In this document: positions 686-30,162 of the stretch, piece by piece
Layout of the letters: each line of letters opens with the position of its first letter
How positions within the stretch are numbered: position 1 is the stretch's first letter
IMG/VR virus record: IMGVR_UViG_3300029288_007060
Coordinates: 1-64,000 of that record
Source of the DNA: a virus
Lineage: Duplodnaviria; Caudoviricetes
Length of the DNA stretch: 64,000 nucleotides
Strand: one strand, 5' to 3'
The notes under the pieces: generated by a model
Told to the model about the DNA's origin: nothing
Database searches by the model: none
What the model saw: only the letters and a program-made list of their open reading frames with translations
Translations under genes and position numbers: made by a program

Positions 686-1060
686 CTAGCTGAGATTCGC
701 TATTACAGAACGAATCCTATCCAGCTTGGCTTGCTCGACGACAGCCAAATCAGGCGTACACCCAGTTTGGTCTGCCGATTCCAGCAAATCATTGATGGCG
801 TTGAGCAGATTGCGACGGTCCTGGAACAGCATGTCCCAAGTACGGCACCATCGCTTATACACCCAAGTGTCCAGCCAGCCTATGGTCCAGCGGAAAACCC
901 AACGCTCACGGAAACTTAGGATTGGACGTCCCGGTGCCCATTCGCCCACTTGCGTTGCCTTATACCGCCAGACAGACTGCGGCCGCCAATAGTTTTTGTG
1001 ATATGGCGGCCCCGGCAACCATTGGAGCACATGTCGAATACGCTCTGCTACTCTTTTCAT
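686..1060 (-). CDS. hypothetical Trp-rich protein
   Basis: ORF track; AGAAAGG RBS directly after Tw2. Confidence 0.7.
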   Translation of the reverse strand: MKRVAERIRHVLQWLPGPPYHKNYWRPQSVWRYKATQVGEWAPGRPILSFRERWVFRWTIGWLDTWVYKRWCRTWDMLFQDRRNLLNAINDLLESADQTGCTPDLAVVEQAKLDRIRSVIANLS

Positions 1061-1074
1061 AGACTTACCTTTCT

Positions 1075-1135
1075 CCCTCTGTTTTTACCCTGGCTTGGGA
1101 CAGGCTAGCGACCTCTAGGTCGCCAGGCAACATTA
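1075..1135 (-). ncRNA. twister ribozyme Tw2
   Basis: U^AA-UGUU-GC-[CUGGCGACC UAGA GGUCGCUAG]-CCUG-UCCCAAGC-CAGG-GUAAA-AACA-GAGGG; matches twister core, T1 CCC/GGG. Confidence 0.92.
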
Positions 1136-1138
1136 CGT

Positions 1139-1285
1139 GTGTTTGGGCCGGTGTAGATACATCAAGGTTATCAGCCTCTCCCACTACTCCGTTTGACCTA
1201 CTCGTGTTGTACCTCCAGGTTGATGACCCTTCGGCATTTTCACTTCCGGCCGACGTTCCCGCTCGTCCTGCTCCTACCCAAACAC
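1139..1285 (-). ncRNA. unknown structured RNA between Tw3 and Tw2
   Basis: 9-bp closing stem GUGUUUGGG/CCCAAACAC, inner stems, no convincing ORF. Confidence 0.55.
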
Positions 1286-1297
1286 TAGAACTCTATG

Positions 1298-1358
1298 CCC
1301 TCTGTTTTTACCCTGGCTTGGGACAGGCTAGCGTCCATTGGCACGCCAGGCAACATTA
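1298..1358 (-). ncRNA. twister ribozyme Tw3
   Basis: Identical to Tw2 except the distal 10 nt of P3. Confidence 0.92.
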
Positions 1359-3387: not shown

Positions 3388-3781
3388 TATGTGTGTATGT
3401 GTGTGTTAGTGTCCTCGACGTGTTCTAACAACATCGTTCGCGGTCCACACATAGTCAAATTCTTCTTTTTCTGTTATCAAGTCACACTCTTGCGCCATGC
3501 CTATTAAACCGCCGGCATAGTGTAAAACATGGTCAAGGTCACATTCACAGCAACGTCCTAGATAATCAATTTGACGTTGTATTCTTTCCAATGCCTTAAA
3601 CCGACGAGCCGCAATGATTGGGTCCATTGTCTTGCCTTTCCGCGTCGCCTTTCGGTCGTCCGCGTTTTTTGCGCTCTCACTTTTAGCGCGTTTTTTTGAC
3701 TTCACCTAAAACCTACCAGACACACTCATCCCTTGGTGCCGGCCATGATACTTACCATGACCATATGTGTGTATGTGTGTG
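3388..3781. repeat. identical 18-mer TATGTGTGTATGTGTGTG at 3388-3405 and 3764-3781 (partial third copy 3900-3910)
   Basis: Direct comparison; CA-rich on the transcribed strand; adjacent to Tw6 and Tw7. Confidence 0.85.
3406..3627 (-). CDS. hypothetical protein, paralog of 1983-2186
   Basis: Start at ATG 3627 with GGAAAGG RBS. Confidence 0.75.
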   Translation of the reverse strand: MDPIIAARRFKALERIQRQIDYLGRCCECDLDHVLHYAGGLIGMAQECDLITEKEEFDYVWTANDVVRTRRGH

Positions 3782-3877: not shown

Positions 3878-3916
3878 GCGCCCTAGTGGCGCCTATGTCT
3901 ATGTGTGTGTCTATGC

Positions 3917-4552
3917 CTATTTGACTATCGGACGACCCTTTGACGCATTGCGTCGTGCAATCTCGGCTAGTTGTTCCTGTGACAATGCGCCGACGGTTTC
4001 ACGAGGCGTGGCTTTGAGCTTGTCTAGTTGTGCTTTAAGACTGGCATACTTCTCGGCAATGGCCACGGATTCGGCGGACTCGATGTCGCGCTGCGTTACA
4101 GGTTTCGGCGTGCCAGACAATACCACGCGCTCGACCGACTTACCTGCGACAACCTTTCGTATGGTAATGACAGGCTTTCTTGCCGTTCTTACCAGGCGCT
4201 CATTTTCAGCCGTGAGCTTGTTGACTTGGCGCGTCATGGTAGCCTTGCGGGTTGACTCTAGCTTGTGAACATCAATGCCGTGAGCGACCAATTTTTGAGC
4301 AAAGGCAAACATCGCATCCTGTCCTTGCGCATTGGCGACCCATTCCAATGCCGCAACATGGTCTTTGGGCTTGGCATTGTGAGCTAAGGCTTGTTCTACG
4401 CTTGCCCTACCCGTGCGGTATAGGTCTAGCATGGTCGTTTTTTTGGGTGCGTGCCAGCCTTGGCAATGGCGAAAGTCGTGAGCCTCACCATTGACTCGCG
4501 CACGACTTAGCACGTCGCGATAATTCCTGTCTGTTCCGTCAACGATTGCCAT
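3917..4552 (-). CDS. hypothetical basic protein, first gene of the ribozyme operon
   Basis: Start at ATG 4552 with GGGAAAGGG RBS, downstream of the sigma54 motif. Confidence 0.75.
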   Translation of the reverse strand: MAIVDGTDRNYRDVLSRARVNGEAHDFRHCQGWHAPKKTTMLDLYRTGRASVEQALAHNAKPKDHVAALEWVANAQGQDAMFAFAQKLVAHGIDVHKLESTRKATMTRQVNKLTAENERLVRTARKPVITIRKVVAGKSVERVVLSGTPKPVTQRDIESAESVAIAEKYASLKAQLDKLKATPRETVGALSQEQLAEIARRNASKGRPIVK

Positions 4553-6558: not shown

Positions 6559-7043
6559 AATAATACGTACTTTTTTCTTCTAAAGGCAGTGAACCCAGGA
6601 ATGGTTTTCCTGTTAGTTTTTGCCTTACAAGATATGAATCTGTGGGTCTCGTCCGCATCAACAGAGTGATCTATATTAGCTTCTAATATCACTATAGTCC
6701 CGTACTTCTTTTTATTCTCTTCTGTGTTAATTGCCTTTTCCCAGGCGGCTATAAACGAATCTTTTCCATGTTCGGTGACCTCTTTCGCAATATCTTTAGA
6801 TGTTATATTGATATAAACAGGATACCATCCCTTTTCAAACCACATATCGTCAAATATATAAGCCCCATACATATCATACGAAATACCCTTGGTAAGTCTT
6901 AACTCCGGAGTTATTTTAAACTTTACTTCTAAATTGGTCCACGGGCCGGGAATGATTTTATTTTTCTTGGCCTTTATTTTGTTCTCTTCTTGAAACTGCA
7001 GTCTAAGCGCTTTAGTTACTCTGGTCTTTCGTTTTTTCTTCAT
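6555..7043 (-). CDS. hypothetical protein
   Basis: 162-aa ORF, GAAAGGA RBS. Confidence 0.75.
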   Translation of the reverse strand: MKKKRKTRVTKALRLQFQEENKIKAKKNKIIPGPWTNLEVKFKITPELRLTKGISYDMYGAYIFDDMWFEKGWYPVYINITSKDIAKEVTEHGKDSFIAAWEKAINTEENKKKYGTIVILEANIDHSVDADETHRFISCKAKTNRKTIPGFTAFRRKKYVLL

Positions 7044-19546: not shown

Positions 19547-19920
19547 TATTTTTTCCTAACAATAGACCATTCATTAAGATGAATCTCATAATATACATTA
19601 TTTCCTTCTATTTTTTTAATATATGAAGGCGTTTTCCACTGAGCTATTAAATTTTCTTTCTTTGCCGGAAGCCACCCTGATTGCTCTGGAGTTTTCCCAT
19701 TGTGCCAGGTTTTTTTATAAACATTTACATTGTTCGCGGTGTCTAGCTCTATCTCAATGCCTAACATTTCCATTTCATTACGAAACTCGTCAATATTTTT
19801 TAAATTCAGTATTTCGCGTGCAATTTTCAAATCTTCCAGTATATTGTTTATCCAGGCCAACCTCTCTTCATTGAGAACGCTGACACTGTCTGATAAATTG
19901 CACAAAATAATTTTCTGCAT
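19546..19920 (-). CDS. hypothetical protein, probably leaderless
   Basis: ATG 6 nt after GTGTAATAT. Confidence 0.75.
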   Translation of the reverse strand: MQKIILCNLSDSVSVLNEERLAWINNILEDLKIAREILNLKNIDEFRNEMEMLGIEIELDTANNVNVYKKTWHNGKTPEQSGWLPAKKENLIAQWKTPSYIKKIEGNNVYYEIHLNEWSIVRKK

Positions 19921-28233: not shown

Positions 28234-30162
28234 TTATGTTGTCCTTGACATTAGAGATGATACGTACCGCAATAATTGATTAGCTGATTCAGGTGTATAT
28301 CCATGGAACTTGACCAGGGTATCAATAACGCTATTTAATTTTTGAAGGGCTTCCGGATCAGGATTTCGCGTAGACACGGTCAATCGAATTACATCCGACC
28401 TCTCGTCGAAAAGCTGCTTCTCTAATGCTTCCCGCAATTTAGCATGCGACTTATAGTCGAATTCTCCCTTCTCGTCTTTGGTCTTTATTACTTTTCGATA
28501 TACTTCTTGACGAAAACTATCCTTAGCGCTTTCACTTACCCCAACTTTTTCTTCTATATTTCGCATAAGATATTTGTCTGGCTCATGATGATCGCCAAAT
28601 TCGTCTTCGACGCTTGTATCATCCAAATAGGCCCCCACATTATCGATATAATTGTTTAAAAGATTTTTAATCTCTCCCTCAAAATTTAAGAAGAAAGCCT
28701 TTTGTACTTCTGATTTGGCCATCTTAGTATATTCTTCTACGACCACAGTAAGCAAGTCATCGTACTTAGCGATGTCTTCTTTGGTTAATTTAGCATTGCT
28801 TTCAAAATTTTCTTTAATTGAACGTAGTACATCGATGGGAGTAATGCAACGCAAATCATATTTGGTAAAACAATCTGCAATACAATTAAATATATATCTA
28901 GGAGATATGCCAATCATTCCTTCTCGCTCTGTCTCTTCCTTTATATCTTTAACGTCTTCGGCAGTAAAGCCCTCTACATCTTGTCCATTGTATAGTTGCA
29001 TTTTTTTCAGCAGTGTAAGATTCTGGTCCTTTCCTGCTTCCAATCGGCTTAGCACAGCAAACATAGACGCAACTTTCAAGGTCAATGGAGCAATATGAAT
29101 GCCGCCAAAGTCTGCCTCGGATACCAATTTGTCATAAATTTTAACTTCATCATTAAGAATCATATTATAGGGACACTTACAAACAATAATTCTGTCATGT
29201 AGCGCCTCTAATTTCTGGTCTGCCAGGAACCTGCGATATTCCGTTTCATTGGTGTGTGCAATAATAAACTCATCAGCATAAATAAGAGGAAACCTTTCTG
29301 TTTTTATTGTCTTCTCTTGGGCCAAGGTTAATAGCACATAAAGGAATTTTGGATCCACCTTTAACATCTCTATCATTTCCATAATTCCACGATTAGCGAC
29401 ATTTAGTTCACCATCAAACTTATAGGCCCGAGGATCTGATTCTACTCCAAAATCTCCCAGCTTACTAAAATCTACCGAGCCTACCAATTCTGTAATTGAT
29501 TGGTTTTTAGTATCTCCAGGAAGAAATGTTCCTATTCCCACTCTGCTAGATTCACTAACAAATATCCTCTTAACGGGCATGCTTAACCAATCGTTTTTAT
29601 ATTTGTCAGCGAGATTGAACTGGCATAATGGGCACAATCTGGCCAAAGGATCTATCTTAATCCCATAATCGTCTCTGAATTTTTTCCTCAAAGGATATGG
29701 CACCGCATTTAGAGGATTCTCATGAATTGGGCAATCAGAAATAGAATATAGGGCTCCATTTTCTGTACGAGAATATTCTTCTAATCCATTCTTTAATAAT
29801 GATGCCAATTGGCTCTTTCCCGAAGAAGTTGGTCCGTACAATAATAGAATTCTACGACCGACTTGTGAACCAGAGGCCGCTGCTTTCAAATATTTGACAA
29901 TTTTATGAAGAGCGTCATCCACGCCAAACAAGTCTTTTTTGAAAAAATTATATTTTGGGAATTGTTTATTCTTATCTTTTTCTTCAAACTCTACTCCCGC
30001 ACTCTCTATCATTTCCAACACACGAGCATGCGCCAGTTGCGACAATTTAGAATTCTGCTGAACCATAGGTATATATTCCTTTATAGTTCCGCTCCATTCG
30101 GTTGTATCTAATTTTTCCAAGTACTTTTCAATATCAGAGAAAATATTATTGGATTCGTTCAT
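28234..30162 (-). CDS. prkA: PrkA/YeaG AAA+ serine protein kinase
   Basis: LLYGPTSSGKS, CPIHENPL, ESDPRAY, GELNVANRG, AHTNETEY, ISPRY. Confidence 0.95.
   Translation of the reverse strand: MNESNNIFSDIEKYLEKLDTTEWSGTIKEYIPMVQQNSKLSQLAHARVLEMIESAGVEFEEKDKNKQFPKYNFFKKDLFGVDDALHKIVKYLKAAASGSQVGRRILLLYGPTSSGKSQLASLLKNGLEEYSRTENGALYSISDCPIHENPLNAVPYPLRKKFRDDYGIKIDPLARLCPLCQFNLADKYKNDWLSMPVKRIFVSESSRVGIGTFLPGDTKNQSITELVGSVDFSKLGDFGVESDPRAYKFDGELNVANRGIMEMIEMLKVDPKFLYVLLTLAQEKTIKTERFPLIYADEFIIAHTNETEYRRFLADQKLEALHDRIIVCKCPYNMILNDEVKIYDKLVSEADFGGIHIAPLTLKVASMFAVLSRLEAGKDQNLTLLKKMQLYNGQDVEGFTAEDVKDIKEETEREGMIGISPRYIFNCIADCFTKYDLRCITPIDVLRSIKENFESNAKLTKEDIAKYDDLLTVVVEEYTKMAKSEVQKAFFLNFEGEIKNLLNNYIDNVGAYLDDTSVEDEFGDHHEPDKYLMRNIEEKVGVSESAKDSFRQEVYRKVIKTKDEKGEFDYKSHAKLREALEKQLFDERSDVIRLTVSTRNPDPEALQKLNSVIDTLVKFHGYTPESANQLLRYVSSLMSRTT

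Follow-up and report, generated by a model that had tools for sequence, protein, structure and literature searches.

The locus

The stretch of DNA analysed here (the window) comprises 64,000 nucleotides (nt), i.e., the first 64 kb of the 158-kb IMG/VR 'provirus' record IMGVR_UViG_3300029288_007060 from a virus of the Caudoviricetes. The record was itself excised from a 246,754-base ENA contig (the parent contig), in which window position 1 corresponds to position 75,812. At the window start, the genes lie on the minus strand, and a spacer is found there that is bracketed by two twister ribozyme motifs, designated Tw3 (upstream) and Tw2 (downstream). Comparative sequence analysis indicates that this spacer is the gene for a structured non-coding RNA of ~150 nt, of a family that is not in Rfam 15. 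In an initial annotation, made from the letters of the sequence, the spacer had been described as a non-coding structured RNA excised by ribozymes. Comparison strongly supports that description: the RNA belongs to a conserved, covarying family, and its two copies in this phage are both bracketed by twisters, at which cleavage is predicted. The unit is flanked by cassettes with small open reading frames (ORFs) of 121 and 124 amino acids (aa), of which the latter is headed by Tw2. The features are listed in Table 1.

Table 1. Features of the twister-bracketed RNA gene and its surroundings, in window coordinates.
Feature	Position	Strand	Evidence or remarks
Upstream cassette ORF, 121 aa	1440..1805	minus	ORF list
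Upstream twister (Tw3), type P1 with P3	1294..1362	minus	Rfam RF03160, 51.6 bits, E 1.3e-8
Linker between Tw3 core and element	1287..1293	minus	Direct sequence reading
Conserved structured RNA element, copy 1, 149 nt	1138..1286	minus	Model R1 167.9 bits, model R2 122.7 bits
P1 5' strand GUGUUUGGGU	1276..1285, pairs with 1148-1139	minus	7 of 10 pairs compensatory
Conserved junction block GGUAGGAGCAGG	1267..1278	minus	AGGAGCAG identical in 19 of 19 members; flanks vary slightly
P2 hairpin, stem GACG/CGUC, 8-nt loop AGCGGGAA	1252..1267	minus	4 of 4 pairs covary, 98.6% paired
Variable central domain, closed by P3 (GGCC 1251-1248 / GGUC 1198-1195)	1195..1251	minus	Minimum free energy folds of both copies
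P4 arm	1149..1193	minus	P4a 98.8% paired, nearly invariant; P4b 4 of 4 pairs covary
Downstream twister (Tw2)	1071..1139	minus	Rfam RF03160, 55.1 bits, E 1.2e-9
Downstream cassette ORF, 124 aa, orphan, headed by Tw2	686..1060	minus	ORF list

A family of structured phage RNAs

The element is present twice in this phage. Copy 2 lies ~10 kb along the same predicted transcript past the window start (19741-19892 of locus L009) and is ~60% identical to copy 1. It is likewise located between two twisters, with 249 nt between the twister starts. Both copies fold alike, and the pairing of the closing stem is kept through a change from U-A to A-U. The linker, which reads CAUAGAGUUCU when the final bases matched by the twister model are included, is not conserved between the copies, and neither is the 17-aa ORF of copy 1.

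A covariance model (R1) was built from the two copies, followed by a second model (R2), which serves as the working definition of the family. Further members were gathered by scoring with R1 the matches of exact-pattern scans and of two further pattern scans of IMG/VR. There are 19 distinct members, viz. the two copies described here and 17 further loci from IMG/VR and metagenome contigs; L099, L109, and L108, which repeat the scores of L097, L103, and L095, respectively, were counted once. The 17 outside members reach 44-81.6 bits (R1) and 74-119 bits (R2), whereas pattern-only matches remain below 30 bits, and the family matches with the two models span E values from 1e-12 to 1e-25. Copy 1 has the best R2 score of all members (E 2.6e-24).

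R1 told true relatives apart from exact-pattern matches, which were roughly as numerous as expected by chance. The pattern GGTAGGAGCAGG-N(2-6)-AGCGGGA had 5, 46, and 22 matches in three collections, and only four loci were true members according to the model; the 22 matches, in 596 Gb of genomes, compare with ~22 expected by chance, and none of them scored. All 48 loci retrieved with the pattern GGTAGGAGCAGG-N(65-95)-AACGGAG were rejected as members; they are mostly 4-8-kb contigs with an identical 85-nt span. Direct DNA similarity searches with the block and with one family member against 50,697 phage records gave no match. The element had no match in Rfam 15, whether in the window (E<=1), in the 1.3-kb locus L029 (E<=10), or in 16 further member loci, which were scanned at the gathering score or with a cut-off of E<=1 or E<=0.1. 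Thus, an Rfam scan and homologue covariation, both named in the initial annotation as ways of checking its proposal, revealed no Rfam family for the spacer, on the one hand, and conservation with covariation across the 19 members, on the other.

That the spacer holds no credible ORF, as had been claimed, was borne out. The longest closed ORF inside the element is 19 aa, and a minus-strand ORF of 39 aa continues into Tw2. No reading frame is conserved in the 19 homologues, most of which contain stops in all three frames.

Fold, covariation, and a probable pseudoknot

The RNA consists of four helices (the closing stem P1, P2, P3, and P4) around a junction lined by near-invariant unpaired blocks, i.e., G[U/C]AGGAGCAG, the P2 loop core G[C/U]GGGA, AAACGGAGUGG, and UCCACACCGGCC or (G)UGUCCACACCGGCC. 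The family is defined by this P1-P2-P3-P4 junction together with the invariant AGGAGCAG, the GYGGGA loop, AACGGAG, and CACCGGCC, all of which are found in window 1286-1138. The P4 arm comprises the conserved AACGGAG (1193-1187), P4a (1191-1182/1159-1149), and P4b (1178-1175/1167-1164), the latter closing the loop CUGAUAA (1174-1168), whilst CACCGGCC occupies 1153-1146. The central domain contains the hairpin GGGU-CAUCA-ACCU (1229-1217).

In the R2 alignment, standard pairs fill 93.4% of the cells, as compared with 73.3% after column shuffling and 33-45% when the partners are slid. Eighteen of the 27 modelled pairs changed on both sides (100 cells), and the covariation score, 0.519 vs. 0.161, was reached by none of 500 shuffles. 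Alignment with MAFFT followed by RNAalifold, which is independent of R2, recovered P1, P2, P4a, and P4b and added P3, a closing helix with compensatory changes (columns 41-45/126-130) of which the register is ambiguous for copy 1. The stem of P2 illustrates the extent of the variation, as it reads GUCU/GGAC, CCGU/GCGG, CCCC/GGGG, CCUU/GAGG, or GUCC/GGAC in other members. P2 resembles a tRNA D-arm in having a 4-bp stem and an 8-nt loop (A-G-Y-G-G-G-A-N), which is noted here as an observation of our own only.

These data refine the fold in the initial annotation. Its 9-bp closing stem (1285-1277/1147-1139) and GACG/CGUC hairpin (1267-1264/1255-1252) covary across the family. In contrast, the proposed GGCCGG/CCGGCC arm is not conserved: CCGGCC (1151-1146) is part of the invariant CACCGGCC block, which pairs in P4a, with AACGG, and in P1, and GGCC (1251-1248) pairs with GGUC (1198-1195). 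Similarly, the segments 1164-1177 and 1217-1231, thought to form an imperfect rod, are better read as two hairpins with kissing loops, CUGAUAA and CAUCA. The 7-nt loop of P4b, usually CUGAUAA, is complementary to the central loop, usually containing AUCA, and the complementarity recurs at a constant position in the variants UGAU/AUCA, UGAC/GUCA, UGACAA/UUGUCA, UAGU/ACUA, UGUGC/GCACG, and GUGAUG/CAUCAC, extending to nine pairs in L105. The length of the complementarity was not significantly different from that with a shuffled loop centre (4.9 vs. 4.1). Based on the compensatory variants at a fixed site, it is probable that the loops of P3 and P4 kiss, AUCA with UGAU, to form a pseudoknot.

The flanking twisters

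The two twisters that the initial annotation had placed on either side of the spacer were recovered on the minus strand as RF03160 matches with E values of the order of 1e-9 and 1e-8, below the gathering score discussed further on. In the cmscan alignments of both, every upper-case consensus position of RF03160 is matched and P2, P3, and P4 are paired. The core nucleotides UAA...GCC...GUCCCAAGCC...GGUAAA...GAGGG are present, as are the nucleotides of the twister pseudoknots T1 and T2, for which the Rfam model has no annotation. Cleavage is predicted between U1358 and A1357 in Tw3, which is also matched by an array-specific nhmmer profile, and between U1135 and A1134 in Tw2, 4 nt past P1 of the element. 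The bases 5' of the twister cut are the tail of the closing stem of the preceding RNA instead of a twister P1. The 3' end of Tw2 overlaps the ribosome-binding site (RBS) of the 124-aa ORF.

Tw3 and Tw2 are near-identical repeats. The repeat first noticed is real and its differences are indeed restricted to distal P3, but the count given, 51 of 61 positions, has to be replaced by 55 of 61 (1075-1135 vs. 1298-1358). One of the differences in P3 is a flip of an A-U to a U-A pair. No viral or metagenome contig matched an exact pattern of the twister core. The Logan contigs from the same run are interrupted within Tw3 and Tw2, as expected because of a 36-nt exact repeat there, and they provide no independent copy of the spacer.

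An array of twister cassettes

The parent contig was followed outward past the window start through L009, L013, and L156. The first ~4900 bases of the window have a GC content of ~50%, against ~35% in the remainder of the record, and this block of ~45-50% GC extends for at least 29 kb on the parent contig. With the array-specific nhmmer profile (E<=0.01), 29 twister-like elements were counted over 28 kb, from L009 7187 to merged coordinate 35441, all in the same orientation, and most of them head a small orphan ORF. Since the boundary of the IMG/VR 'provirus' lies inside this array, it looks arbitrary.

The product of the 124-aa ORF had no Pfam or PHROG match and found only itself among 5.8 billion proteins. 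The 121-aa protein has one homologue (61% identity), encoded on a 2.3-kb JGI contig (L008) that also bears a twister; positions 1269-1333 of this contig match Twister-P5 (RF02684) with 44.6 bits, above the gathering score of RF02684. The array contains genes for tRNA-Lys(UUU) (L009 11386-11462) and tRNA-Leu(UAA) (L009 12239-12323) on the same strand, and a gene for an HNH endonuclease (weak Pfam HNH/HNH_5; L009 18166-18792) is the sole called gene in it on the opposite strand. Additional features of the array concern the twisters and the sequences between them. In the twisters at window 2286-2198 and 3876-~3783 (minus strand), P4 is separated from the 3' strand of P2 by an additional hairpin (GCUCA...UGAGC) that resembles an optional P5 stem; the second of them is reported by Rfam as 3876-3809, which is mis-aligned, its true extent being longer (to ~3783). 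Furthermore, CA-rich linkers resembling ACACACACAUACACACAUAG are repeated between stop codons and the next twister (3405-3388, 3781-3764, and ~3915-3895, minus strand).

Three other twister-to-twister units are very short, leaving no room for a normal ORF: L009 11522-11656 (134 nt), L009 15416-15607 (191 nt), and merged 29533-29699 (166 nt). The spacer in the first of these has a terminal stem, GUGGACUG/CAGUCCAC, followed by ACGU and, beyond the cleavage position, AAUG, and it also contains CGACGGAGCAGUCCACACG. It recalls the AACGGAG...UCCACACC of the element and might have been left behind by a deletion; it is not matched by model R2.

A direct view of cassette loss is offered by another JGI contig (L027), which is 99.98-100% identical to the parent contig and lacks exactly 634 nt, comprising one twister and a 162-aa ORF. 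At the site of the deletion (L027 5838-5860 vs. L009 14376-15009), the alignment blocks overlap by 23 nt, which are the shared 3' end and RBS of adjacent twisters. The deletion is a cassette loss by recombination between twisters, and gain is possible by symmetry. The other twisters of the array are far more diverged than the pair Tw2/Tw3, and twister-twister recombination is the simplest account of the near-identity of these two.

Genomic context of the element in other phages

Outside this phage, the element is not associated with twisters. The nhmmer profile of the array twisters found none in the 17 other member loci, and Rfam revealed no ribozyme near the members scanned. Four genomes that are complete according to CheckV (76-210 kb) each contain exactly one copy of the element and no twister.

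In several phages, the element is found next to tRNA genes. In L106, it lies inside a run of ~18 tRNA genes, the next of which begins 5-10 nt downstream, and in L019, it ends 6-8 nt ahead of a tRNA gene. It begins 10-14 nt past a tRNA-Leu gene in L098, and in L054, a tRNA-Thr gene is located ~110 nt upstream. Such neighbours are present in roughly one quarter to one third of the family members only; two complete member genomes contain no tRNA genes, and a third has its tRNA array 45 kb from the element. The possibility that the element is itself a tRNA was rejected, since ARAGORN and Rfam RF00005 find the neighbouring tRNAs, never the element. T-arm-like sequences of the GGUUCGAUUCC type, one of them followed by CCA, flank the element in L019 (~6640-6690), L054 (~3885-3990, minus strand), and L089 (downstream of 2992, minus strand). 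ARAGORN does not call them, and they could represent tRNA genes that are degenerate or of an unusual type.

Sigma-70-like promoters end 4 nt ahead of the element in L103 and L106. No protein family recurs near the element in 18 loci, except for a family-A DNA polymerase, which is encoded nearby in five of them. In L105, two matches to the int-alpA RNA (RF02996) above the gathering score (246-311 and 3423-3490, minus strand) are found 2-5 kb from the element.

Release of the RNA and competing explanations

A single minus-strand transcript is envisaged for this locus, composed of small cassettes that each begin with a type-P1 twister. Self-cleavage of Tw3 and Tw2 would free an RNA running from A1357 to U1135. 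Its predicted length of 223 nt, already deduced in the initial annotation, follows from the cleavage sites between U and A. From its 5'-OH, the RNA would comprise the 3' product of the twister and a linker of 11 nt, followed by the element and by 4 nt that end in a 2',3'-cyclic phosphate. After cleavage of Tw3, the 3' product of this twister would remain on the 5' end of the freed RNA, whilst the transcript of the 121-aa ORF would terminate at the cut.

Both copies of the element end 4-5 nt ahead of a twister cleavage site (after ACGU and ACGGU, respectively), and therefore, the twisters would be processing signals that free the RNA from the cassette transcript. The 3' end of the product, just beyond P1, is about where RNase P would leave the RNA in the two phages with a tRNA gene 5-10 nt downstream. 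As this end matches the position of tRNA processing elsewhere, the twisters here would do the job that tRNA processing or a promoter does in other phages, i.e., setting the ends of the RNA. The constant feature would then be P1, joining the RNA ends, with some end-setting device near it. On the 5' side, this device would be a promoter or an upstream tRNA, and on the 3' side, a downstream tRNA, with its RNase P site, or a twister cut. We infer that a 5'-OH buried in the ribozyme fold and a 3' end beside a stem would delay degradation by exonucleases. Once freed, the RNA presumably acts in trans. Most likely, its partner is a protein or another RNA, or else it has catalytic activity of its own; a specific partner or catalysis is suggested by the many conserved unpaired bases of the core. 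In summary, the sequences establish the RNA family, its fold and non-coding nature, the twister motifs, and the cassette architecture; that the twisters cut, that the freed RNA is stable, and that it acts in trans are inferences, and the explanation as a whole is considered likely.

Several points speak against this likely scenario. The scores of Tw2 and Tw3 are below the gathering score of RF03160 (67.2 bits), and a gathering-score Rfam scan of the whole window was empty. The low scores result from the unpaired stem P1, the positions of which are flagged as non-pairs in both cmscan alignments. The missing P1 does not exclude activity, however, since this stem is dispensable for cleavage according to a review (PMC6154101). 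The folding energy of the spacer on the transcribed strand is unremarkable (z = -1.3 to -2.0 relative to dinucleotide shuffles), and the support for the predicted structure is comparative, not thermodynamic. The covariation counts come from an alignment fitted to R2, and all members were found via exact-match patterns from the family itself, so that its spread and diversity are under-sampled. In about half of the members, a Shine-Dalgarno (SD) sequence and the start codon of a small ORF follow 2-40 nt downstream, and in these, the RNA may not be freed but stay part of an mRNA, as its 5' leader. Finally, the proposed function in trans has no handle, because no partner protein recurs near the element.

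The element might be a cis-acting 5' leader for the next gene, e.g., a riboswitch of an orphan class, an element affecting translation, or a structure that stabilizes the mRNA. Good SD sequences with a start codon within 2-40 nt are present in L104, L107, L103, L098, L102, L095, L092, and L054. A promoter lies just upstream in L103, L106, and L095, and in L103 and L095, where an ORF follows, the element would be the 5' end of the mRNA. Also the highly conserved unpaired core and the pseudoknot resemble those of ligand-binding aptamers. However, riboswitch classes normally control coherent sets of genes, whereas the ORFs downstream of the element share no relationship (the best of the pairwise matches had E 0.015 over 19 residues). 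Moreover, in both copies in the present phage, a twister separates the element from the downstream gene, and in L106 and L019, a tRNA gene follows instead of an ORF. A terminator or an alternative fold that sequesters the SD sequence was not seen, in the course of an inspection that was not a systematic search. Altogether, a leader function appears unlikely.

A bolder proposal, which is held only tentatively and at rather low probability, is that the element represents a new functional class of RNA, either catalytic or the core of an effector that is directed by phages of many lineages against a host process, e.g., translation or a tRNA-targeting defence, and that the array is a ribozyme-punctuated cassette system. 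In such a system, each twister would serve twice: as an RNA processing site that frees mRNA, tRNA, or small RNA, and as a DNA repeat for the exchange of cassettes, like the attC sites of integrons.

Another possibility is that the element is a ribozyme of a new class, be it self-cleaving, ligating, or other. Its many invariant junction and loop nucleotides, the compact multi-helix fold, and the pseudoknot would fit such a role, and new self-cleaving classes have historically been discovered beside twisters and hammerheads (PMC6765202). However, the association with ribozymes is restricted to this phage, given the absence of twisters from the 17 other loci and the four complete genomes and of Rfam ribozymes near the members scanned, and the sequence points to no cleavage site. 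This possibility is regarded as improbable.

The initial annotation had extended its proposal to a 223-nt RNA that might be circularized like retrozyme or Tornado RNAs and act as a decoy. In this reading, an RtcB-type ligase would yield a stable circle. Indeed, the 5'-OH and 2',3'-cyclic phosphate left by twisters are the ends that RtcB joins (PMC8782182). However, in circular RNAs processed in this manner, both ribozymes are removed and the two new ends lie in one stem. Here, each twister cuts on its own 5' side; the upstream twister is thus retained, and the 5' end of the product would be that of the twister itself, which is thought to be buried in the fold (PMC8782182) and is separated by ~80 nt of sequence from the stem holding the 3' end. 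No RtcB was found in the 158-kb record, which is incomplete, and only one of five other member genomes encodes it. The other members lack ribozymes, so circularity cannot be a trait of the family. Circular products of clustered phage hammerheads were sought previously and none were found (Perreault et al., 2011; PMC3088659). Circularization is thus considered very improbable, and the 6S-like or decoy role that was suggested along with it is pure speculation, as neither 6S RNA nor any other Rfam family was found. A relationship to Y RNAs of the YrlA type was rejected as well: no TROVE/Ro60 protein is encoded in the 158-kb record or in five member genomes, there is no Rfam match, and no T-loop of the GUUCGAAUC type is present in the alignment.

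Finally, the idea that the spacer is junk, an emptied cassette, or a deletion scar between duplicated twisters might be raised because cassettes are gained and lost between twisters and three other very short units (134, 166, and 191 nt) exist in the array, but it is refuted by the diverged second copy and by 17 homologues with compensatory base-pair changes in unrelated phages, and deserves practically no credence.

Relation to known systems and significance

The flanking ribozymes share with the twisters of RF03160 the conserved core, the P2-P3-P4 arrangement, and the cleavage site between U and A. They differ in their scores of 51.6-55.1 bits and in that P1 is not formed, and the array of 29 hits is far larger than the clusters found in the literature. 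Clustered self-cleaving ribozymes in phages have been described for hammerheads, which flank single genes in prophages and are proposed to cut long phage transcripts into RNAs of gene length (Perreault et al., 2011; PMC3088659). As in the present array, several ribozymes punctuate a long phage transcript there, separating single genes of varying identity. However, the ribozyme here is a twister rather than a hammerhead, there are 29 as opposed to up to three, and the cargo includes, twice, a conserved structured non-coding RNA; furthermore, a natural deletion of a cassette is available.

The nearest case is offered by the minimal hepatitis delta virus-like Theta ribozymes, reported beside tRNAs of gut phages (Kienbeck et al., 2024; PMC10879173). 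There too, a phage self-cleaving ribozyme sets the end of a non-coding RNA. It is of another class, has a tRNA as its cargo, and acts as a single ribozyme, whereas two twisters bracket a non-tRNA RNA here. Other structured RNAs of unknown function in phages and prophages are ROOL and GOLLD, which are often found near tRNA islands, contain pseudoknots, and have no known protein partner (PMC12286853). They measure 500-800 nt or more, vs. ~150 nt here, and no match in sequence or structure to them was found in any Rfam scan.

According to the T4 annotation, the tRNA cluster of bacteriophage T4 ends with rnaC and rnaD (species 1 and 2), stable RNAs of 139 and 119 nt. These, too, are small stable phage RNAs of unknown function that are transcribed together with tRNAs and freed by processing. 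Homology to the element is rejected: with R1 and filters off, the best score in the 70.0-73.0-kb region of T4 was 4.5 bits. Amongst engineered systems, an RNA is placed between two self-cleaving ribozymes in Tornado designs, which gives it defined ends whatever the polymerase, and both ribozymes are removed. The arrangement here is similar, except that the upstream twister would be retained.

New in the present case are the RNA family, its bracketing by two ribozymes, which occurs twice, the size of the twister array, and the direct view of cassette loss at twisters. The deletion in L027 suggests how such an array may grow and shrink. The role of self-cleaving ribozymes in bacteria and phages has been called still "largely elusive" (PMC6765202). 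The locus described here is an unusually clean case in this respect, as the cargo between the ribozymes is a conserved RNA, the ends of which would be set elsewhere by tRNA processing or a promoter. The identity of this cargo makes the notion that ribozymes serve as end-defining processing signals directly testable. Besides, the few phage RNAs for which no function has been assigned are joined by a compact (~150 nt), strongly covarying family with an invariant core and a probable pseudoknot. It is spread across unrelated phages, and its size fits structure determination and biochemical screening.

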